Notes: generated by a model from the letters alone, not told the origin. DNA of 64,000 nucleotides from an uncultured Gemmataceae bacterium (GCA_963750165.1 CAVVPN010000003.1:2912001-2976000), one strand, 5' to 3'. Positions 1 through 11,700 are shown, counted from the stretch's first letter. Numbers and translations: made by a program.

Positions 1-9
1 GGTTCTTGT

Positions 10-964
10 CGGTTCACCCCCACGCTCGTGGGGAGCAGGTCGCCCTTGTGCGGAATGATGTGGTCCACCACGGTTCACCCCCACGCTCGTGGGGAGCAGT
101 TATTTCACGGGCTCGCTGACGGCATTGCTGTACGGTTCACCCCCACGCTCGTGGGGAGCAGGTGGCGACGCTGTTTGGCCTTTGCTGCATCTTCGGTTCA
201 CCCCCACGCTCGTGGGGAGCAGGCTTCCACCACGCCCGGATCGTGGCCGCTAGCGGTTCACCCCCACGCTCGTGGGGAGCAGATTCAATATCGTTGAGCA
301 AACCACCCAATCGGCGGTTCACCCCCACGCTCGTGGGGAGCAGGTCCGTGGCGGCCTCCTGGGCCGGGCTCAGCTTCGGTTCACCCCCACGCTCGTGGGG
401 AGCAGGTACGCGGACTGACCGCCCTCTGGTTCTCACTTCGGTTCACCCCCACGCTCGTGGGGAGCAGCAACCCTTCGACTTCGGCCGGTGCGGCGGAGAG
501 GGTTCACCCCCACGCTCGTGGGGAGCAGGCTGGTGCTGCCCGCCGGGTCGGAGCCGGGGCCGGTTCACCCCCACGCTCGTGGGGAGCAGGTGCTGGACGG
601 CACTCAAGCCGATGCCCCCACCGGTTCACCCCCACGCTCGTGGGGAGCAGGCAGACGCTCGGCACCGCCGGGGACATTGGCCTCGGTTCACCCCCACGCT
701 CGTGGGGAGCAGTTACAATTAGAGTGTCCGGTGGGTGATGTGACGGTTCACCCCCACGCTCGTGGGGAGCAGGAAAATCTCAGCCGTGCCCACCGGCAGC
801 CCGTCGGTTCACCCCCACGCTCGTGGGGAGCAGGGCCTTGTGCCAGTTGCGTTCGTCGTCCCAGGCGGTTCACCCCCACGCTCGTGGGGAGCAGGTAGGC
901 GTCGTCCTCAAGGTCGGCGCGCACTCGCTGCGTGCCGGTTCACCCCCACGCTCGTGGGGAGCAG
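10..964 (-). CRISPR. Type I-E CRISPR array, 16 visible 29-nt repeats and 15 complete spacers; probably continues past the left edge
   Basis: Repeat CGGTTCACCCCCACGCTCGTGGGGAGCAG (+) starts at 10, 71, 133, 194, 254, 315, 377, 439, 500, 561, 622, 684, 744, 805, 866 and 936. The reverse complement CTGCTCCCCACGAGCGTGGGGGTGAACCG has the I-E CCCCAC/GTGGGG stem and ends in AACCG. Spacers are 31-33 nt except one of 41 nt. Confidence 0.99.
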
Positions 965-1059
965 GCTAACCGAATGTCCACTGCATTCGAGCGATCCTAA
1001 CTGAAAAAGCGATCAGATAGTGAACGGTTGAATGCTAACAGAACTTGTCGTCGCAGCGA
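965..1059 (-). promoter_or_regulatory. CRISPR leader
   Basis: Relatively AT-rich non-coding segment between the cas2 stop and the first repeat in the transcribed orientation. Confidence 0.75.
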
Positions 1060-1386
1060 TCACCCATCCTTGGGACGTTGACGCGCTGCCGCCTTGCGGT
1101 TCTTCCTGGTCGATTTCTCAATGGTCACCAGGGCCAGCCCCTCGAAGTCTTGCAGCATCCGGTTACTTCGGCCAGCCTGACGGAATGTCCATCCTTGGGG
1201 GGTGCGGCTGCTCCATAGTTGCAGCACAAAGCCCGGTACCGGCCGCGCCGTGATTTGTTGCCACAGCTCATCCCGCACCCTCGGGCTGGGGTGGCCCAGA
1301 TAGGTCCCCGGGCGGATTTCGATCAGCCAACGACTCAGCGCGCCCTTCCATTTCGGCGGCATTTTCTCCAGAATCATGATTAACAC
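1060..1386 (-). CDS. cas2: Type I-E Cas2
   Basis: LIMILEKMPPKWKGALSRWLIEIRPGTYLG...RVRDELW...DFEGLALV; follows cas1; start (GTG 1386) estimated. Confidence 0.93.
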   Translation of the reverse strand: MLIMILEKMPPKWKGALSRWLIEIRPGTYLGHPSPRVRDELWQQITARPVPGFVLQLWSSRTPQGWTFRQAGRSNRMLQDFEGLALVTIEKSTRKNRKAAARQRPKDG

Positions 1387-2197
1387 CGAGCACCTCCGCA
1401 ATGTCGGGAAGGAGACGTTCCATCAGCTTAGCCGCGTGAAACGCCTTGCGGCACTCCTGGCGGATGGCCCGCTCCAGGCCCTCCGTGGTCGTCGCCGCCA
1501 ACCGGAACGCCACGGGGATCGTCACCTCGACCTTGTAAAAGTCTGCCACGTCGTACACGAATGACAGCATCTTGCCTGTGTGAATGAATCCGAGAGCCGC
1601 CGAGTAGCCGGCCGCCACAATGGCGGCGTGGCAGACGCCGTACAGGCAGGCATTGGCGGCGGACAACGCCCGGTTGGCGGGCGTGGCCCGATACCAGTCC
1701 TCTTGGCTGTAATCGCGGCCCGTCCAGGTGATGCCGAACTGCGCCGCGGCCTGCTGGTACGCCTGGCGGACCCGGGCGCCCTCCAGACCGCGGATCTGTT
1801 CGATGGACATGCTTCCCAGTTCGGTGCCGGGGAAGCGCCGCCGGTACATGCGGTGGACGACCTCCATGCGGAGTTTGTCATCGACCACCAACCGGGCCTG
1901 GTGCAGCAGGCGCCGCGAACTGAACGTGCCGCCGGTCGAGTGGGCGTATAGGCGGACGCCATCCTCGCCGACCCAGGCGGCCAGGCAGTTGTTGGCGGCC
2001 AGCGCCTTGACGGCGGCGTGCGTGACGCTGATGCCGGGGCCGAGCATGACCAGGCTGATCTGGTCGATGGGCACCAGGGTGTCGTTCTGTTGCTGGTGCA
2101 AGACCAGGCCGCTGTCTTCCTGATCGAGGACACCGCGTTCGAGGTAGAGGTAGCTCCAACGGTCCTCGAACCGGGGCAGGGAGTGTAGCGTTTTCAT
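1268..2197 (-). CDS. cas1: Type I-E Cas1 integrase
   Basis: DRWSYLYLERG, LVMLGPGISVTHAAVKALA, EQIRGLEGARVR, NRALSAANACLYG, LGFIHTG, SFVYDVADFYK. Confidence 0.98.
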   Translation of the reverse strand: MKTLHSLPRFEDRWSYLYLERGVLDQEDSGLVLHQQQNDTLVPIDQISLVMLGPGISVTHAAVKALAANNCLAAWVGEDGVRLYAHSTGGTFSSRRLLHQARLVVDDKLRMEVVHRMYRRRFPGTELGSMSIEQIRGLEGARVRQAYQQAAAQFGITWTGRDYSQEDWYRATPANRALSAANACLYGVCHAAIVAAGYSAALGFIHTGKMLSFVYDVADFYKVEVTIPVAFRLAATTTEGLERAIRQECRKAFHAAKLMERLLPDIAEVLGVNHDSGENAAEMEGRAESLADRNPPGDLSGPPQPEGAG

Positions 2198-2892
2198 GAG
2201 GTAGTCCTCGCCGGCGCGATGGACAGGAGCCCGAAGCCGAACCCTTTGGCGCTGCCGATGCCGTTTTGCAGGGTGAGGAGAAATCGGCCGGGGTCGGTGA
2301 CTTCCAGCATGCCCTCAAAGCGGACGGCGTGGAAGCGGCCGGCGGTGTGCCCGTCCTTGCCGCACCGGACCCAGCCCTCGGGCATCACATCGCAGCGAAA
2401 GTTCGGCGCTTTCCCGCCGTCCCCATCTTGCAGCCATTCGCCGGGGATGCGGAATCCGCCCTGTTCGGCTTTTTCCAGCAGCCAGGCCACCTGCTCGTCT
2501 TCGCGAAGCAATGCCAGCCGTTGGCCGTTGCCCTTTTTGCCGGCCAGGCGATCTTCCTTGGAAACGCTGCCGACTTTCTTGGTCGGGTTGGCCCGCAGCC
2601 GGAAGCACAGGCGCTGGCCCGGCGCGAAGGCCAGATCGCACCGCTTGGACTCGGCCGGCCCAAGGAGGTAGCACCTGGGCAGGCCGGACCAGTCGGGATT
2701 GTCGCGGGTTTGCACGAGAACGACGGGCTGCCCTGACCGCGACGGCTCGACGCGGAACAGCAAGTCGCAGCGATCATCGACGCGCGGGTAGGGGTAGGCG
2801 TTCATTAGGGTGCGGTGCATTTCGTAGGACTGGGCCAGGTCGCAGCGCGCCTGGCGGTCACGAGGGTTGAGAACCAGTTTGCTGAGGAACAC
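2194..2892 (-). CDS. cas6e: Cas6e (Cse3/CasE) crRNA endoribonuclease
   Basis: FLSKLVLNP..YEMHRTLM, FRLRANPTKK, C-terminal G-rich loop GIGSAKGFGFGLLSI; start GTG 2892 estimated. Confidence 0.96.
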   Translation of the reverse strand: MFLSKLVLNPRDRQARCDLAQSYEMHRTLMNAYPYPRVDDRCDLLFRVEPSRSGQPVVLVQTRDNPDWSGLPRCYLLGPAESKRCDLAFAPGQRLCFRLRANPTKKVGSVSKEDRLAGKKGNGQRLALLREDEQVAWLLEKAEQGGFRIPGEWLQDGDGGKAPNFRCDVMPEGWVRCGKDGHTAGRFHAVRFEGMLEVTDPGRFLLTLQNGIGSAKGFGFGLLSIAPARTTS

Positions 2893-3580
2893 GAGGGGAC
2901 TCCGGAATTGGTTCGAGGATCGGGATTGGGAGAATCGAAAATGTACAGTTCTGCACGTGCCGGATGCCGAAGCGGCGGTCGCGGCTGACGAATGACATCG
3001 GCACATCCGGCCGCGGCTCGCCGGTGCCGTAAGACACTTCCCGCACCCCGCGAAGAGTCTCGCCGGAAGGCTTGTCTCCGGGGTGCCGCTTCCGCCAGCC
3101 GTGGTTTGCCAGCACCGCCATCAACTCGCTTTCGCTCACCCCTTCGGGTGCGGCAACAGGGAGGGACGGTACGAACGCCTTGCGGCCAAGGAACAGCGGC
3201 CAGACCGGATGGCGGAGGGCGTCGTCCAGCCGCTTCAGGAAAGCGTGTTCACCCTCAAGGCCGACCAGGAAATCGGCGTCGGCGAGGTAAAACCGCTCGC
3301 TCAGCACGGTGTCCTGCGTAGCCTTGGTCGGGTCGGCGCGGCGGACATTCTGGGCGGTGTGGTAGTCGCGCATCAGCCGACCCTCACGGTCCACGCGGAC
3401 GGCCATCGTGAGCGGCACAAAGTCGTCCAGCGACTGTTCGCGCGGCCGGCCCAGCGCGGCGCACAACAGGCCGATGACGCCGGAGCGGGACGGCTCCAGC
3501 CCGGTGTCGCGGTTGCTGAACCGGCTGCGGGTGCCCCAGCTCTGCATCGGGCCAGCCAGGCGCATCAGCAGCACGCTCAT
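2858..3580 (-). CDS. cas5: Cas5e (CasD)
   Basis: LLMRLAGPMQSWG, PSRSGVIGLLCAALG, RDYHT, RFYLADADF, LFLGRK. Confidence 0.97.
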   Translation of the reverse strand: MSVLLMRLAGPMQSWGTRSRFSNRDTGLEPSRSGVIGLLCAALGRPREQSLDDFVPLTMAVRVDREGRLMRDYHTAQNVRRADPTKATQDTVLSERFYLADADFLVGLEGEHAFLKRLDDALRHPVWPLFLGRKAFVPSLPVAAPEGVSESELMAVLANHGWRKRHPGDKPSGETLRGVREVSYGTGEPRPDVPMSFVSRDRRFGIRHVQNCTFSILPIPILEPIPESPRVPQQTGSQPS

Positions 3581-4809
3581 GTCGCCCCCTTTCCGTCGAA
3601 GGCGGCCTTGGTGACCGCCGCGATCAGCGCCTCCACCGAGCCGACAGGGTCTTTCAAGTGTTGGAGGGTGAGGCGCTCCATTTGGCAAACGGCCGACGCC
3701 TTCCGGCCGCCGTCGCCGTACATGCCGACGAGCCGGCCGTAATAGTCGTCCAGCGCCTCAATTGACTTTCCGACCAGGCTTTCTTCGCCGCGTGGAGTGA
3801 TCGGTTTGACGAACGCATTGGCCAGCGACACCGGTGACCCATCGCGGACGATGGCGAAAACGAGCGACGGGCTGTTGTGGGCGGCAAAGCTGTTCTGTTT
3901 GCCGGTGGGGATGGCGTGGATGAACGCCTTGAGGAATGCGGAAGTAGTGGTCCTGGCAAGTTCGGAGTCTCCTTGCAGGCCGAACGACCGCGACTTTTTC
4001 TCATCCCTGTAGCCGCCGACCAACTCGGCGACATCCAGGGTGGCGTAGCGGTAGAAGCAAGCGGAGTTGAACTCGACCGTGCCAATCATGTCGGCTCCGG
4101 CCGTATCCTCCGGCTTGAGGTCATCCACGGCGGTGTAGTAGTCCATCTCCATCGTGTGGATCTTGTTGGTAGAGATTGCGTGGGCGACCTGGCAGGTGGC
4201 ATCGACGTTTCGCTCAGGCAGATCGGCAAGCATCCGGCCGAAGAGGGCCAGGTCGGCTGCCTTGCCGCCATCGAGAAGTTTCTCCACGGCTTTCGTGAAA
4301 CCTTCCGGAGCTTTTGGGCCATCATCGGTCGCCTTCGATTTGCCCCGTCCACGGGCGGCCGGTTTTTCGGCGGTTGCCGGCTTGGGATCAATTTTTGGTT
4401 CGGCAGAGAAGGCGTCCCAGTGTTGATTCACGACATCCGCGAACCGGGTGATTTCGCTATCCCCGAGGAAAAGAAGGTACGGCGTTTTGTGTTCGTCCTT
4501 GTCCTCCGACTTTGGCAGAAACGCCGACACGGCATTCTTGGCCGCCCGCAAAGCGGAGCCTTCATCACGGCCTTGTTTCTGCAAGAGTTTCGACACGGCC
4601 TCGGCCAGCCGTTTGGTGCGTTCGGCGCGGTTCGCGGCCGGGATCAGGTCGTGGTCCTTGAAATAGTTCCGGACAGCCCGCTTTTGACACTGGCTGGAGA
4701 TGCGGGCGCGACGGTGGCCGCCGAAGTCGGCATCCTTTGGGCTACCGGTGTCGTCGCGGTTCAGGTTCGAAGGGGCGAAGTTTTGCAAAACATGGATCTC
4801 GATGCGCAT
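3577..4809 (-). CDS. cas7: Cas7 (Cse4/CasC) Cascade backbone
   Basis: IHVLQNFAPSNLNRDDTGSPK, RARISSQCQKRA, DLALFGRM, VAHAIST, DYYTAVDD, PTGKQNSFA. Confidence 0.98.
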   Translation of the reverse strand: MRIEIHVLQNFAPSNLNRDDTGSPKDADFGGHRRARISSQCQKRAVRNYFKDHDLIPAANRAERTKRLAEAVSKLLQKQGRDEGSALRAAKNAVSAFLPKSEDKDEHKTPYLLFLGDSEITRFADVVNQHWDAFSAEPKIDPKPATAEKPAARGRGKSKATDDGPKAPEGFTKAVEKLLDGGKAADLALFGRMLADLPERNVDATCQVAHAISTNKIHTMEMDYYTAVDDLKPEDTAGADMIGTVEFNSACFYRYATLDVAELVGGYRDEKKSRSFGLQGDSELARTTTSAFLKAFIHAIPTGKQNSFAAHNSPSLVFAIVRDGSPVSLANAFVKPITPRGEESLVGKSIEALDDYYGRLVGMYGDGGRKASAVCQMERLTLQHLKDPVGSVEALIAAVTKAAFDGKGAT

Positions 4810-4832
4810 GGGGACTCCAGTGGGGTAAGGGA

Positions 4833-5366
4833 TTATTCGGAAACGGGTTGCTCCTGGTTTGCTTTTGCCTCTGCTTCAGGGGCGTTCCAGAAGCCGCGAG
4901 CCCATTCCTTCTGGACCCAACGGTCGGCGTGATTCCAGTTGCCAAGGTGTTGAATGAGCAACCGCCAGTCGAGGCCGATGCTATCTCGGGCAATCAAGGT
5001 GGTGGCTTGGCGGAGCTTGTAAGACAGTTCCTCGCCGTCCGTGTCGAGCAGGTCGATAAAGCGCTTCTCCCGTTGCTGCCTTTCCTCCAGGGTCAGTCCA
5101 GCCCCGAATGCCGCGCCAAAGTTCACCTGTTCGGTTTGGCGACAGTCGCCCTTCACCCAGGCGAATAGCCCAGCGGCGAGGACGGAATCGTCGAGCGCGA
5201 AATCTGGCACTCGGCGAAACAGCCAACCGACACGGCCGAGGGTGTAGTCCAGGGGCCGTTCGAGTCCACGGCGGAGGTGGGCCAACGCGGCCCGGTTCGG
5301 GTTGTCTGGGTTGGCAAGTTCGGTCAAATCATTGACCAACTCGATGTCCCACTTTGGAGCGCTCAT
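4833..5366 (-). CDS. cse2: Cas11 (Cse2/CasB) small subunit
   Basis: NRAALAHLRRGL, EKRFIDLLD, LDWRLLIQHL, WVQKEWARGFW; lies between cas8e and cas7. Confidence 0.93.
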   Translation of the reverse strand: MSAPKWDIELVNDLTELANPDNPNRAALAHLRRGLERPLDYTLGRVGWLFRRVPDFALDDSVLAAGLFAWVKGDCRQTEQVNFGAAFGAGLTLEERQQREKRFIDLLDTDGEELSYKLRQATTLIARDSIGLDWRLLIQHLGNWNHADRWVQKEWARGFWNAPEAEAKANQEQPVSE

Positions 5367-6925
5367 GCGACACCTTCTTTCTCTCGATTCGGGATGCGGT
5401 TGTCGTTGCGAATCTTCTTCAGACGGGAAAACAGCAGTCCCCGGCCGGCGTTGACGGCTTTGAGGTCGCGGCCGCCGTCGATTCGACCGATGGAATCGTT
5501 GAAGGCGTCCTTGGCGGTAGGGTGAAGAGTGTCCCAGTACCAGCTGTTGACGCACGCCCCAAGGTCCGCCCCGTCGGCGGCGAGGGTGACCAACAGTTCG
5601 CGGAACGGCCGCTCCAACCGAGACCAGTAGAGACGGTCTGGGGCAAAGGAATCGACCACGGCGCTGACGCGGTCTTTGTCCGGATTCATCTCAGCGCTGC
5701 CGGTTAACCAATTCGCCGCCGCCGCCCAGGCCGCTTTTCGTAGCGCGTCTTTGACGGCCTCCGCAAGTTCAAGCGAATGTTTAAGTGACTCCACCAGTTC
5801 TGGACGGTCGAGGTACGCGAGCGGCAACGGCAGGGTTTCGTGCCGCCAGAAATTGACCTTGGCCTTGTCCGTGCAAAGACCGAAGACGGACACGCGGTAG
5901 CGGGCCGCGCGAGGCAACACTTCTTTCAACTCGAAATGCGCCAGTGTGTGCAGCGTGGTCGGCCCCTTGAACTGGTCGGCCTCCGCAAATTGAAAGAGGG
6001 TCGCACTATCGCGCCACAGGTCGCGGTTCTCGCTCAGCCGGACAGGCCGGTCACCCTCTTCCTTGCTGCGTGAGTACGCGATCATCGGGTCGTAGAACCC
6101 AGCCGGGACTTCGAGCTTCCGCCCCTGGGCGTACGACACCCGGCGGACCATCACTTTCCCGTTAACTTCTTCGGGGTGCAACCGGAGTGTCCGACTCTGC
6201 CACGTCAGGTAGTCAAGGTAGCCACGCGGGCGGCCCGGTTGTTTGTGTGGTTCGGTTGGAGGCCGCTCCCACACTGGGACATCATCGGGCAAACTGGCAA
6301 CGGGGTCTTTGTTAGAGAAGACTGTGAGGTTCAACCACAAGGTCTCGAACAGGGTGTCACCCCGCGCGAGAACCACCGCTCCGGAGACGAGTGGGGCGTG
6401 CGTAGTGTTGCCGGTGTCGCTCTTGCCGCCTCCCACCGCGAACGCTTGCTCGGCAACCACAACTCGGGCGGCGCGGGCCGGGGTCAAGGCCGGTGGAGGG
6501 TCATCGGTCGTGTGGTCGAACAGGGCAGCGTTGTTGCCACGGGACAATTCTTGAGCCAGCCGGTTGATTCCACTCGGCTCTTTGGTGGTGAACCCCGCTC
6601 GTTGGAAGAACGGGTATTTCTCATGGAACAAATCGAACCGATCAGCCCACTCAGCGAAGTAGGTGTTCACGCGGTTGGCATCGAACATTCCAGCCTGCCG
6701 GGTGGCAACCCGGTCTGCCGACTTCCTCGGTCCCTGGTAACAACGGTGCAAGATTGCAAGGAGGAGTCGGTGCAGCGCGACAGTAACCAGAGGTGACTCG
6801 TCGCGGATTTCGGTAATCGTGTGCGCCTGAACCAGCACATCGTGGAGGCTGTACTCGACCGCCCTACCGTCGCGGAAGAGACATAGAATGACAGGTTCCC
6901 TTGCGAGATTAAATGACACTGCCAC
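5363..6925 (-). CDS. cas8e: Cas8e (Cse1/CasA) large subunit
   Basis: SFNLAREP, VALHRLLLAILHR, DRFDLFHEKYPFFQ, GNNAALFDH, GDTLFETLWLN, YLTWQSR; GTG start preceded by AGGAAGGGG. Confidence 0.95.
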   Translation of the reverse strand: MAVSFNLAREPVILCLFRDGRAVEYSLHDVLVQAHTITEIRDESPLVTVALHRLLLAILHRCYQGPRKSADRVATRQAGMFDANRVNTYFAEWADRFDLFHEKYPFFQRAGFTTKEPSGINRLAQELSRGNNAALFDHTTDDPPPALTPARAARVVVAEQAFAVGGGKSDTGNTTHAPLVSGAVVLARGDTLFETLWLNLTVFSNKDPVASLPDDVPVWERPPTEPHKQPGRPRGYLDYLTWQSRTLRLHPEEVNGKVMVRRVSYAQGRKLEVPAGFYDPMIAYSRSKEEGDRPVRLSENRDLWRDSATLFQFAEADQFKGPTTLHTLAHFELKEVLPRAARYRVSVFGLCTDKAKVNFWRHETLPLPLAYLDRPELVESLKHSLELAEAVKDALRKAAWAAAANWLTGSAEMNPDKDRVSAVVDSFAPDRLYWSRLERPFRELLVTLAADGADLGACVNSWYWDTLHPTAKDAFNDSIGRIDGGRDLKAVNAGRGLLFSRLKKIRNDNRIPNREKEGVA

Positions 6926-7008
6926 GCTGGCACCCCTTCCTGTCGGTGGTGTTGTCCAGATTGCGTTGAAATAGCAAGAATCCAGCAAGGCGATCCACTT
7001 GCCGGGTC

Positions 7009-7100
7009 GAGGACGCCCCCACACACGTGGGGAAGTTGAAAGGTCGGGGGTCAGAACCGCCCGTTACTCACGGTTCACCCCCACAACACGTGGGGAAACA
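7009..7100 (-). CRISPR. Degenerate one-spacer mini-array (candidate regulatory crRNA-like RNA, CreA/CreR-type)
   Basis: Pseudo-repeat 7071-7100 CGGTTCACCCCCACAACACGTGGGGAAACA keeps the GTGAACCG handle and the stem. Spacer 7038-7070 is 33 nt. Pseudo-repeat 7009-7037 GAGGACGCCCCCACACACGTGGGGAAGTT keeps the stem but has a decayed handle. Confidence 0.9.
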
Positions 7101-7128
7101 AAAAACGTGGGGGAGTCAGAAGGGTCAA

Positions 7129-7335
7129 TCAGCGGCCCAGTCGCGGTAGCGCTCCGCGTTTGCGGGCATTCGCCAGCAACCGCCAGAACTCAGCCTGCGT
7201 CAGGACAGCACCGGTGCTGCGCTGCACCTCCTCCCAAAGCCACTCGAACTCCTCCGTGTAAGGCAGCTGGTCTGCCGCCATTCCCTGACGCTGGTAGCAT
7301 TCGGCCAACACCGATAGCAGAGCCGTTCGGTCCAT
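7129..7335 (-). CDS. 68-aa protein of unknown function, first gene behind the guide-targeted promoter
   Basis: ATG with Shine-Dalgarno AAGGAGGTG (7341-7349) 5 nt upstream and its own promoter; helical-looking sequence with DQLPYTEEFE and WRLLANARKRGALPRL. Confidence 0.85.
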   Translation of the reverse strand: MDRTALLSVLAECYQRQGMAADQLPYTEEFEWLWEEVQRSTGAVLTQAEFWRLLANARKRGALPRLGR

Positions 7336-7365
7336 AAATTCACCTCCTTCCGGCTGCTAAACCGA

Positions 7366-7394
7366 ATCTTAGGCAGCAGGCTCTGCCATGTCAA
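7366..7394 (-). promoter_or_regulatory. sigma70-type promoter TTGACA-N17-TAAGAT
   Basis: -35 TTGACA at 7394-7389, 17-nt spacer, -10 TAAGAT at 7371-7366, immediately upstream of the ORF68 ribosome-binding site. Confidence 0.85.
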
Positions 7395-7418
7395 ACGTCT
7401 CTACCACCCGTCACTCAT

Positions 7419-7420
<2 letters not shown>
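7385..7420 (-). promoter_or_regulatory. Partial protospacer plus AAA PAM for the mini-array spacer
   Basis: Target TGAGTGACGGGTGGTAGAGACGTTTGACATGGC vs spacer TGAGTAACGGGCGGTTCTGACCCCCGACCTTTC; 5' flank AAA at 7420-7418. Confidence 0.85.
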
Positions 7421-10176
<2,756 letters not shown>

Positions 10177-11157
10177 TTATTCGTAAACTTCCCAACCACG
10201 CCGAAATTCGTCGCGCACCTGTTCGCGCAGCTCCGCCGGTTCCAGCACCTCACATTCCGGTCCGTACCCCATCACCCAGCGCCGCACTTCCAGCAAATGG
10301 CTCACCGTCAGCGTCAATTCCAGGCTGCCGTCGCGCCGCTCCTTGATGACCTGGCTCGGGTGCCACTCGCGCAACTTCACGTACCGCGCCGCTTCTCCGG
10401 TGAAGCGCAACCGTACGCGCTGCGGCCCGGCGTCGCCACGCATCGACCGAAAGCTCGCGTCCAGGTAGTCGCCAATGCGGAAGTCCGCCGGCCGCTCAAA
10501 GCGCTCACCCGTCTCGCGCAGGGAGCGAATCCGCGCCGGCACGAACATGCGCACCTCCTCCCGCAGGTGGCAAAACGCGACCAGATACCACTCGCCTTGC
10601 ACGGACGTCAGGTGGTACGGATCGACGGTGCGGCGGCACTCCTCGTCGCGCAACGCGCTCCAGTACAGCAGCTCCAACCGCCGGCCCTCGCGCACCGCCC
10701 GCATCAGCTGCCGGAAGCAGCGCACGGCGCCGGCGTCCGCCTGGGGGCTGCGGAACGAGACGGTCTCGCCCAGGTGCGACAGATCGACCGTCACCTCGTC
10801 CGGCAGCTGAGCCGTCAGTTTGCGGAAGGTGGTCGCCAGGTCCGCGGCGTAGGGGGTGCCGTGGTAGGTCTGCATCAGGCGTTCGGCCAGAAAGAGCGCC
10901 ACCAGTTCGCCCTCGCTGAGGCGCAACAGCGGCAAGGCGTAATCCGGCAGGCTGTAGTAATAGCCATGCCGGCGGGCGTCGTATTCCAGCGGCGCACCCA
11001 GCGAGTCGCGGAGGAACTCCAGGTCGCGCAGGACAGTCCGACGGTTGACTTCCAGTTCGCCGGCAAGCGTGCGGGTATTGGGGTAGCCGCCAGCGCGGAT
11101 GCACCGATCCACGGCCACCAGGCGGCGCAGCGGGGGACGAGAAGTTCGTTCCATCAT
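10177..11157 (-). CDS. HTH-WYL-WCX transcriptional regulator (YafY/PafB-like)
   Basis: HTH LAGELEVNRRTVLRDLEFLRD; WYL domain RTVDPYHL..GEWYLVAFCHLREEVRMF..RI; WCX region WVMGYGPECEVLEPAELR; ends 27 nt upstream of cas3. Confidence 0.95.
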   Translation of the reverse strand: MMERTSRPPLRRLVAVDRCIRAGGYPNTRTLAGELEVNRRTVLRDLEFLRDSLGAPLEYDARRHGYYYSLPDYALPLLRLSEGELVALFLAERLMQTYHGTPYAADLATTFRKLTAQLPDEVTVDLSHLGETVSFRSPQADAGAVRCFRQLMRAVREGRRLELLYWSALRDEECRRTVDPYHLTSVQGEWYLVAFCHLREEVRMFVPARIRSLRETGERFERPADFRIGDYLDASFRSMRGDAGPQRVRLRFTGEAARYVKLREWHPSQVIKERRDGSLELTLTVSHLLEVRRWVMGYGPECEVLEPAELREQVRDEFRRGWEVYE

Positions 11158-11199
11158 GGTGGGCTACCAGCGAAGGACGGCCATTCAACAACTTTAGAG

Positions 11200-11234
11200 A
11201 GTATATTCAAGGGGGTGCGACATTGCCTGTCATA
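11200..11234 (-). promoter_or_regulatory. Putative WYL-cas3 promoter: -10 TATACT with an upstream palindrome TATGACA-N5-TGTCGCA
   Basis: Minus strand reads TATGACAGGCAATGTCGCACCCCCTTGAATATACT, 43 nt upstream of the WYL start. Confidence 0.6.
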
Positions 11235-11287
11235 TGCGAAAAGCAATTCTTGAGGTTTACTTCTTGCCTGGCCTCTGCGCGGCTTAC

Positions 11288-11700
11288 TCACGTCTTCTTG
11301 CGTGGACGCTCCATCTCCAGCACGAACGTCCCGGCTTTGAGCGTGTCGCCGCCCTGGTTCCAGGCGGCCGCGTTCGGCCAGACGATCAGCGTCAGCCGCC
11401 CGGCCTTCAGCGTGCATGTGCAGGGCAGCGTGTTTCCCTTGCCCTGCACGTCGAGGCGCCCGCGTTTGGCGTCGAGTACCGCCCTGCCCGTGGTCTCGGT
11501 CTCGCTCAGTGGCGTCTGAAGTGTGAAGTTACCGACCTCCAACTTCAGATGCCAGTGCGAGTCCTCGGCGGGATGTCCACCGTGCCCTTGGCCGTCAGGA
11601 GCTTTACGGCGACCCACGAGCCAGCCAGTTTTGCCCGCTCGTCCTAGCGGGCCTCCAGGACGCAGGGAAAGGCCGTTGCCATAACGACAGCCAGGTGGGT
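11288..11700 (-). pseudogene. Disrupted small secreted protein, possibly planctomycete TIGR03067-like
   Basis: One frame reads LAVVMATAFPCVLEAR*DERAKLAGSWVAVKL, then shifts into the frame ending LKAGRLTLIVW...TFVLEMERPRKKT; boundaries approximate. Confidence 0.35.

Follow-up and report, generated by a model that had tools for sequence, protein, structure and literature searches.

Self-regulation of CRISPR systems by CreR, a CRISPR RNA (crRNA)-like guide, is reported as demonstrated for types I-B, I-E, and V-A (bioRxiv 10.1101/2023.03.10.532045). In the Salmonella enterica type I-E system, the same preprint describes 15 consecutive nucleotides (nt) that are identical in CreR and in a site flanked by AAG, some 140 bp upstream of casA, and 8.6-fold repression of a reporter. 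According to Shmakov et al., about 19% of bacterial type I-E loci have mini-arrays. These are typically in the gap between cas3 and cas8, their targets are in the cas8 promoter, and mismatches between mini-array and target are seen at the sixth position (10.1101/2023.03.03.530964). A 2026 preprint assigns the known CreTA modules to types I-B and I-F and the known cases of CreR to types I-E and V-A (10.1101/2024.10.29.618823). Here we describe a window of 64,000 nt from an uncultured Gemmataceae bacterium (GCA_963750165.1 CAVVPN010000003.1:2912001-2976000; positions are counted from its first letter). In the gap between cas3 and cas8e of its type I-E system, two degenerate repeats flank a single spacer that matches a site at a putative promoter upstream. 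Comparison with related loci makes it very probable that this element is a CreR-type (crRNA-like) regulatory mini-CRISPR of the Gemmataceae type I-E system.

The element resembles type I-E CreR of Salmonella and E. coli, as described by Liu et al. and Shmakov et al., in several ways. It is a two-repeat degenerate mini-array in the cas3-cas8e gap; its first repeat (PsiR1) keeps the 5' handle and its second repeat (PsiR2) keeps the 3' hairpin; and about 15 nt on the side of the protospacer adjacent motif (PAM) are identical to a site at the Cascade promoter. By analogy, we would expect binding without cleavage, and autorepression that senses crRNA load and anti-CRISPR proteins. What is particular to this locus is that the guide lies downstream of the promoter that it targets, that a small conserved open reading frame (ORF) of 68 codons, ORF68, lies between them and has repeatedly been lost, and that the flanks are AAA or AAT. 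In the published E. coli case, in contrast, the target is downstream and the mini-array has its own start region, and the flank in type I-E CreR is AAG. Also, the host is a planctomycete (Gemmataceae), and this locus is known from sequence alone. A sequence-only reading of the window had proposed the guide and had regarded the general principle as known. That was right: type I-E cases in the cas3-cas8 gap are already published (10.1101/2023.03.10.532045; 10.1101/2023.03.03.530964), and there is no new principle here. A full-text literature search for planctomycete CRISPR mini-arrays found no paper. The text supplements of Shmakov et al. (PMC10120712) have no Gemmata or Planctomycete entry, although the larger supplementary tables were outside the search and might list the clade.

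The mini-array (Table 1) has the parts that a crRNA-like guide would need. The end of PsiR1 (GTGAACCG, 7078-7071) is identical to the final 8 nt of the canonical repeat of the genome (CTGCTCCCCACGAGCGTGGGGGTGAACCG), while PsiR2 ends in a degenerate tail (GCGTCCTC). When folded singly, PsiR1 (-11.9 kcal/mol) and PsiR2 (-13.0 kcal/mol) form hairpins as stable as that of the canonical repeat (-12.4 kcal/mol). The intact handle and both stems claimed by the sequence-only reading are borne out. We folded the repeats singly because the global fold of the RNA from 7128 to 6926 (z = -0.8, not informative) is dominated by cross-pairing of the C-rich and G-rich repeat halves. Cas6e of E. coli cuts at hairpin bases. 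By analogy, a cut after 7017 would yield a 62-nt RNA (7078-7017). The mini-array is the sole repeat-like site in the genome outside the 95-repeat array. We ruled out a canonical CRISPR array, as the repeats deviate from the consensus and from each other and the single spacer matches the host's own promoter. A search of Rfam with positions 6850-7500 found no family at E ≤ 1. Between the stop codon of ORF68 and PsiR1 (7100-7128, minus strand), CTCCCCCACG followed by a run of six Ts resembles a leftover half repeat, which suggests that the mini-array formerly had more units.

The spacer and the target are identical at positions 1-5, 7-11, 13-15, 19-21, 26-28, 30, and 33; within the first 15, the only mismatches are at 6 and 12. 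We re-read the coordinates, the letters, the 21/33 alignment, the AAA flank, and the placement of the -35 box that the sequence-only reading had given, and all were correct. Within the window, the target is the spacer's best match other than itself, and the runner-up matches at 11 of the 13 base-pairing seed positions. Across both strands of the 9.6-Mb genome (19,240,836 positions), all 13 seed positions match only at the spacer itself and at the target; 12 of 13 match at 10 sites, and 11 of 13 at 103 sites. Roughly one perfect seed match is expected by chance genome-wide, so the match by itself is not significant at that scale. Its significance comes from its location and from its replication in related loci. 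The target lies some 350 nt upstream of the spacer, on the same strand and within the same intergenic region. As a control, we considered 91 loci with Cas8e relatives and asked for any two same-strand sites, up to 900 nt upstream of cas8e, that share all 13 positions. Pairs were found in 4 of the 91 loci, or 3 distinct ones (the window, L022 = L037, and L024), all of which have the module described below. No such pair was found in the remaining 87.

The target overlaps the only promoter-like site in 6800-7600, TTGACA-N17-TAAGAT (1 found, versus 0.1 expected in shuffled sequences). In five of the six related loci compared below, a TTGNCN-N17-TANNAT pair overlaps or adjoins the target; besides the window, these are L022, L024, L042, and L048, which have TTGACA, TTGACG, TTGCCA, or TTGCCG, followed by N17-TAnnAT. 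In the sixth, L043, only the -10 box is clear. The -35 box does not have a fixed place relative to the target: in protospacer numbering, it starts at 16, 24, 26, 29, or 39 in the five loci. In relatives that lack the ORF, the promoter-like site is about 60-90 nt upstream of PsiR1. We think it likely, though less so than the CreR-type nature of the element, that the guide is transcribed from the promoter that it shuts, within the operon leader, because this is the sole promoter-like site in the gap and is near PsiR1 in the loci without the ORF.

To compare loci, we used the Cas8e relatives from 14 of 252 genomes of the family (the window's own genome included) and the best 80 of 260 Cas8e relatives from a metagenome scan. 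Six Gemmataceae loci, including the window, have the same module: cas3 stop codon, target, sigma-70-like promoter, mini-array, and cas8e. The identity of their Cas8e proteins to that of the window is 73% (L042), 67% (L043), 63% (L048), 64% (L022 = L037), or 51% (L024). L041 (76% identity) also has the module, but its contig starts inside the promoter and the target is beyond the contig's edge. We aligned these seven mini-arrays. Little or no variation is seen in the stem of PsiR2 and in the 3' stem half and handle of PsiR1 (GTGGGGGTGAACCG; single changes in L048, L024, and L041). The loops (3-8 nt), the spacers, and the tails of PsiR2 vary. In L048, the stem of PsiR1 has a compensatory change (CCCCAT/ATGGGG), and in L043, the stem of PsiR2 has one G-U pair. 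In all seven loci, the handle of PsiR1 is kept and the tail of PsiR2 is degenerate, and the two hairpins keep their distance from the start of cas8e (about -170 and -108).

The sequence-only reading had suggested checking homologous loci for covariation between spacer and promoter, and we found it. At least four sequence types that look unrelated can be told apart among the spacers of the six loci, and every target tracks its own spacer. (The window and L042 clearly have a common spacer ancestry.) In each of the six, the similarity starts right at the base that follows the 8-nt handle. The pairing run covers positions 1-15 in the window and in L024 (each with mismatches at 6 and 12), 1-16 in L022 (mismatch at 6), 1-14 in L043 (mismatch at 12), and 1-19 in L048 (mismatches at 10 and 12); it is weaker in L042, with mismatches at 3, 6, 7, and 12. 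The flank is AAA in the window and L042 and AAT in the other four loci, and never AAG. Across the six loci, the non-flipped positions within 1-15 match in 74 of 78 cells. Positions 6 and 12, which Cascade would flip out, match in 3 of 12, which is the random level (Fisher's exact test, p = 1.9e-7; this value overstates independence because the loci are relatives and not independent samples). From position 20 onwards, 28 of 79 cells match, which is also about random. This is the pattern that we would expect if selection maintains the seed pairing of a type I system and nothing else.

We also considered that the two similar 15-nt sites might be duplicate operators for a protein regulator, such as the WYL protein encoded upstream of cas3 or ORF68 itself. 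A WYL/HTH regulator is indeed encoded beside cas3, and the model of ORF68, a three-helix bundle, has weak fold hits of the HTH-like type. However, the downstream copy always starts right after the repeat-derived 8-nt handle and is followed by the second repeat hairpin. The copies are direct repeats, not palindromes, and mismatches at positions 6 and 12 are the signature of Cascade rather than of an operator. Furthermore, the module persists where ORF68 is gone. This is the least probable of the explanations that we considered.

Instead, we propose that the mini-array is a CreR-type guide and that Cascade uses it to repress its own operon. The promoter just past cas3 would transcribe ORF68, then the mini-array, and then cas8e, cse2, cas7, cas5, cas6e, cas1, and cas2. 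Cas6e would cleave at both hairpin bases, which would give an RNA of about 62 nt, made up of the handle (GUGAACCG, 8 nt), the spacer (33 nt), and a hairpin (21 nt). Cascade loaded with this guide would bind the AAA-flanked target (7417-7385), would flip out bases 6 and 12, and would pair over the rest of positions 1-15 and over 19-21. The resulting partial R-loop, about 15-21 nt long, would be too short for locking and for action by Cas3; interference and priming in E. coli are reported to need contiguous pairing over more than 18 bp (PMC5904413). The bound Cascade would cover the -35 box, so that less of ORF68, the guide, and the Cascade genes would be transcribed. The promoter would reopen when Cascade is scarce, is diluted by the 94 crRNAs of the array, or is inhibited. 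Relief by crRNA competition or by anti-CRISPRs is taken by analogy from what is published for CreR (10.1101/2023.03.10.532045). We infer transcription, processing, loading, binding, repression, and relief, and likewise that this Cas8e would accept AAA and AAT. The sequence-only reading had made the same proposal of Cascade-guided autorepression, and the architecture of the six loci, the co-variation, the pattern of mismatches, and the conservation of handle and stems support it.

Several observations weigh against our proposal, besides the relatedness of the six loci. The flanks, AAA and AAT, are not the canonical AAG of E. coli; in three loci, the AAN flank may be partly constrained by the adjoining stop codon of cas3. 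Comparison of 15 and then all 94 array spacers to their own genome gave only partial matches without a consistent flank and no protospacers, and two array spacers had no exact match in IMG/VR. Our promoter call uses the sigma-70 consensus, which is not validated for planctomycetes, a group whose promoters are poorly defined. PAM-distal mismatches are reported to weaken promoter occlusion in E. coli (PMC5904413), so repression here may be modest. The state of the system is also uncertain, as cas3 carries two frameshifts in the assembly. Its three reading frames, joined near 8575-8602 and near 8150-8162 (the latter at a GGGGG run), are together collinear with an intact homologue of 950 amino acids (aa) from L047. 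The other cas genes, which span about 6 kb, are all intact, so a real cas3 pseudogene seems more likely than a random assembly error. If cas3 is truly broken, then Cascade could only bind, and the regulatory role of the guide would be unaffected. Pairing is imperfectly kept in L042, with its seed mismatches at positions 3 and 7. Finally, the module is absent from five distinct close relatives (L021 = L034, L045, L046, L047, and L068) as well as from the more distant L025 and L027-L030. In the loci without the module, the stop codon of cas3 abuts or overlaps the start of cas8e. (We did not include in these counts L023 = L035 = L044, which have only 134 nt of upstream sequence, or L026, L036, and L049, which have partial genes.) Because of its absence from the five close relatives, the module is an optional insertion within one clade of Cas8e.

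These absences, the decay of the seed in L042, and the degeneracy of the repeats would fit with the neutral decay of a remnant, left by an old CRISPR array or by a self-acquired spacer, whose match to the promoter has no function. But the handle and stems are conserved amid diverged surroundings, in loci with as little as 51% identity of Cas8e, and the mini-array keeps its position with respect to the start of cas8e. A functionless remnant also would not explain why spacer and target co-vary with mismatches at a 6-nt period, or why such pairs were absent from all 87 control loci. We consider a neutral remnant to be very improbable, if slightly less so than duplicate operators.

ORF68 is directly behind the targeted promoter, with its start (7335) 31 nt past the -10 box (7371-7366). 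It is a real gene: it has 25 homologues at 57-85% identity, nearly all of exactly 68 aa, and an alignment of 21 sequences, including the query, has 14 invariant residues (DQLPYT..F...W...RKR..LP). Compared to the homologue in L043, the ratio of nonsynonymous to synonymous substitution rates (dN/dS) is 0.16, which indicates purifying selection. ORF68 is intact at the equivalent position in L043 and L048. In L042 and L022, only C-terminal remnants are left, and in L024 nothing is, but the guide and target are kept. In L041, ORF68 is frameshifted and has lost invariant residues, and the guide is kept. As it has decayed in relatives that retain the guide and target, ORF68 is ancestral to the module, yet dispensable for it. 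By the same comparison, cas regulation alone would maintain the guide, because the guide is retained in relatives without ORF68.

ORF68 matches no family in Pfam, PADLOC, or PHROGs. Its AlphaFold model is a three-helix bundle (mean pLDDT, predicted local distance difference test, of 75.5). A Foldseek search of this model against PDB found nothing at E ≤ 0.001; the best E value was 1.3, and the rows were only weak HTH-like or homeodomain-like ones. A sequence profile against PDB gave only spurious matches to de novo TIM barrels, and in the ESM Atlas, only unnamed planctomycete clusters matched. A profile search with the domain found 609 cluster representatives at E ≤ 0.001, of which 142 were at E ≤ 1e-10. 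The domain, of which ORF68 is a standalone copy, is about 55 aa long, has the motif D.LPYT.EF...FW...RK.G.LPR, has no Pfam model, and is often found as a tandem pair (about 143 aa). Among 28 longer proteins and in the family genomes, it is fused to AAA_14/DUF4143 ATPases, AXE1 esterases, argininosuccinate lyase, DinB, glyoxalase, Mrr_N, DUF3644, and ASCH. Because it is so promiscuously fused to unrelated proteins, we suspect that the domain binds or serves as an adaptor rather than being toxic. We also noticed, among 12 inspected loci of distant standalone paralogues, that the copies in 3, from three Gemmataceae genomes, are directly downstream of FRG-domain genes, and that others adjoin DndB-like or SIR2 genes.

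The position of ORF68 raises the question of whether it is a toxin. Shu et al. report that CreP, a protein toxin, is under guide control in a type I-F system (10.1101/2024.01.05.574328), and ORF68, directly behind the targeted promoter and with a strong Shine-Dalgarno sequence, has the position that is described for creP in the gap between cas3 and csy1 of Acinetobacter. If this locus were of the CreTA/CrePA type, then the guide and Cascade would silence a toxic ORF68, the cell would be addicted to an intact Cascade, anti-CRISPRs would be punished, and the regulation of the cas genes would be a by-product. The close ORF68 family is conserved and under purifying selection, and on at least three occasions ORF68 was lost or disrupted and the guide retained, which is the asymmetry expected of a toxin and its antitoxin. 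However, ORF68 lacks similarity to anything in Pfam, PADLOC, or PHROGs, lacks a fold match, and shows no relation to KilAC or to known CreT or CreP. The fusion of its domain to many unrelated proteins is unlike a toxic domain. ORF68 would also be co-transcribed with the cas genes, so that each physiological de-repression would induce it. And where ORF68 is gone and the guide remains, cas regulation suffices to account for the guide. Overall, we think that addiction is unlikely.

A somewhat better explanation for ORF68, but still a speculative one, is that it forms a three-part unit with the CreR-type guide and the Cascade genes. A single promoter gated by Cascade would express ORF68, then the guide that shuts the promoter, and then Cascade itself, with ORF68 as the output that is released when Cascade is titrated or blocked. 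ORF68 could be the type I-E counterpart of CreP, or it could be a regulatory or adaptor protein that activates a second defensive layer. Having the guide embedded in the leader of the operon would fix the ratio of guide to Cascade. The flanks without a G (AAA or AAT) would have been selected as a weak PAM, which would be an additional guard against the recruitment of Cas3.

Two published arrangements with a gene under guide control are similar to this one. In CrePA of the type I-F system of Acinetobacter baylyi, as it is described, an ORF and a mini-array are also found together in the gap between cas3 and the gene for the large subunit, and the ORF's promoter also carries the guide's partially matching, PAM-flanked target beside the -35 box. 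But CreP is a KilAC-domain protein with demonstrated toxicity, whereas neither a KilAC domain nor any other known one is found in ORF68; and creA is upstream of creP, whereas here the guide is downstream of the ORF, in a type I-E system instead of type I-F. Shmakov et al. also describe cargo genes under mini-array control, mainly in type I-D (10.1101/2023.03.03.530964). There, as here, spacers match promoters of non-cas genes that lie between cas3 and the large-subunit gene, and the cargo is variable: some relatives have a mini-array without cargo, and others have empty loci. The type I-D cargo, as reported, is downstream of the mini-array and consists mostly of toxin-antitoxin or regulator genes. 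Here, the locus is of type I-E and the cargo, upstream of the mini-array, is one 68-aa ORF from an unnamed family.

Table 1. Features of the type I-E locus and of its cas3-cas8e gap, in window coordinates.
Feature	Position	Strand	Remarks
Type I-E locus	10149-1060	minus	Pfam
cas3	7419..10149	minus	stop codon TAA at 7421-7419; HD, DEAD, and two C-terminal domains (Pfam)
PAM-side flank, AAA	7418..7420	minus	overlaps the cas3 stop codon (TAA, 7421-7419)
Target (protospacer-like site)	7385..7417	minus	21/33 identical to the spacer
Putative sigma-70-like promoter, TTGACA-N17-TAAGAT	7366..7394	minus	-35 box at protospacer positions 24-29
ORF68	7129..7335	minus	68 aa; strong Shine-Dalgarno sequence GGAAGGAGGTG (7351-7341)
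PsiR1, degenerate repeat	7071..7099	minus	hairpin CCCCAC-GTGTT-GTGGGG; intact 8-nt 5' handle
PsiS, guide spacer	7038..7070	minus	33 nt; flanked by PsiR1 and PsiR2
PsiR2, degenerate repeat	7009..7037	minus	hairpin CCCCAC-GTGT-GTGGGG kept; final 8 nt degenerate
Stem-loop past the mini-array	6982..7005	minus	a few bases after PsiR2, before cas8e; weak U-rich tail
cas8e	5363..6925	minus	GTG start at 6925, set by alignment to homologues
cse2, cas7, cas5, cas6e, cas1, cas2 (rest of the type I-E operon)	1060..5555	minus	Pfam
Canonical CRISPR array, leader-proximal part	8..993	minus	array extends past the start of the window

As identified with Pfam, the gene order on the minus strand is cas3, a 497-nt gap, cas8e, cse2, cas7, cas5, cas6e, cas1, cas2, and the CRISPR array. 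Within the gap, the order is target, promoter, Shine-Dalgarno sequence and ORF68, PsiR1, spacer, PsiR2, stem-loop, and the start of cas8e. The stem-loop has a folding energy of -12.8 kcal/mol, and only 1 of 200 shuffled sequences was equally stable. L042, L043, and L022 have a hairpin of different sequence at the equivalent place, and in L024, a third repeat-like hairpin replaces it. It is possible that the stem-loop is an attenuator, or that it protects the 5' end of the cas mRNA that would be left after cleavage by Cas6e.

Directly upstream of cas3 is a gene for an HTH-WYL-WCX regulator of the CRISPR-associated WYL type (10177-11157, minus strand), which may provide a second, protein-based layer of cas regulation. 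It is preceded by an 87-aa ORF (11154-11417) that matches no family. The canonical array has 95 repeats in the genome (C3:2907133-2912959) and 94 spacers. The canonical sequence is found exactly in 74 of the 95 repeats, and 18 have the loop variant GTGC instead of GAGC. The first 19 nt of array spacer 72 are identical to a sequence that is present three times in the chromosome (C3:2409690, C4:1179944, and C4:1186432), with the flank GCA. This canonical spacer partly matches its own genome on the seed-proximal side, probably at a mobile element that is present in several copies.

If our proposal is correct, then it extends RNA-guided autorepression of Cas genes to the Planctomycetota. The comparative evidence for the mechanism is unusually clean, with spacer and promoter co-evolved over six loci. 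The seed mismatches at the bases that Cascade flips out would be an evolutionary footprint of the pairing geometry of type I systems. The locus would also offer a natural pair of promoter and guide with which to tune Cascade in a phylum where manipulation is difficult. And one branch of the unnamed ORF68 family seems to ride inside CRISPR loci under the control of Cascade, which would make its function testable.

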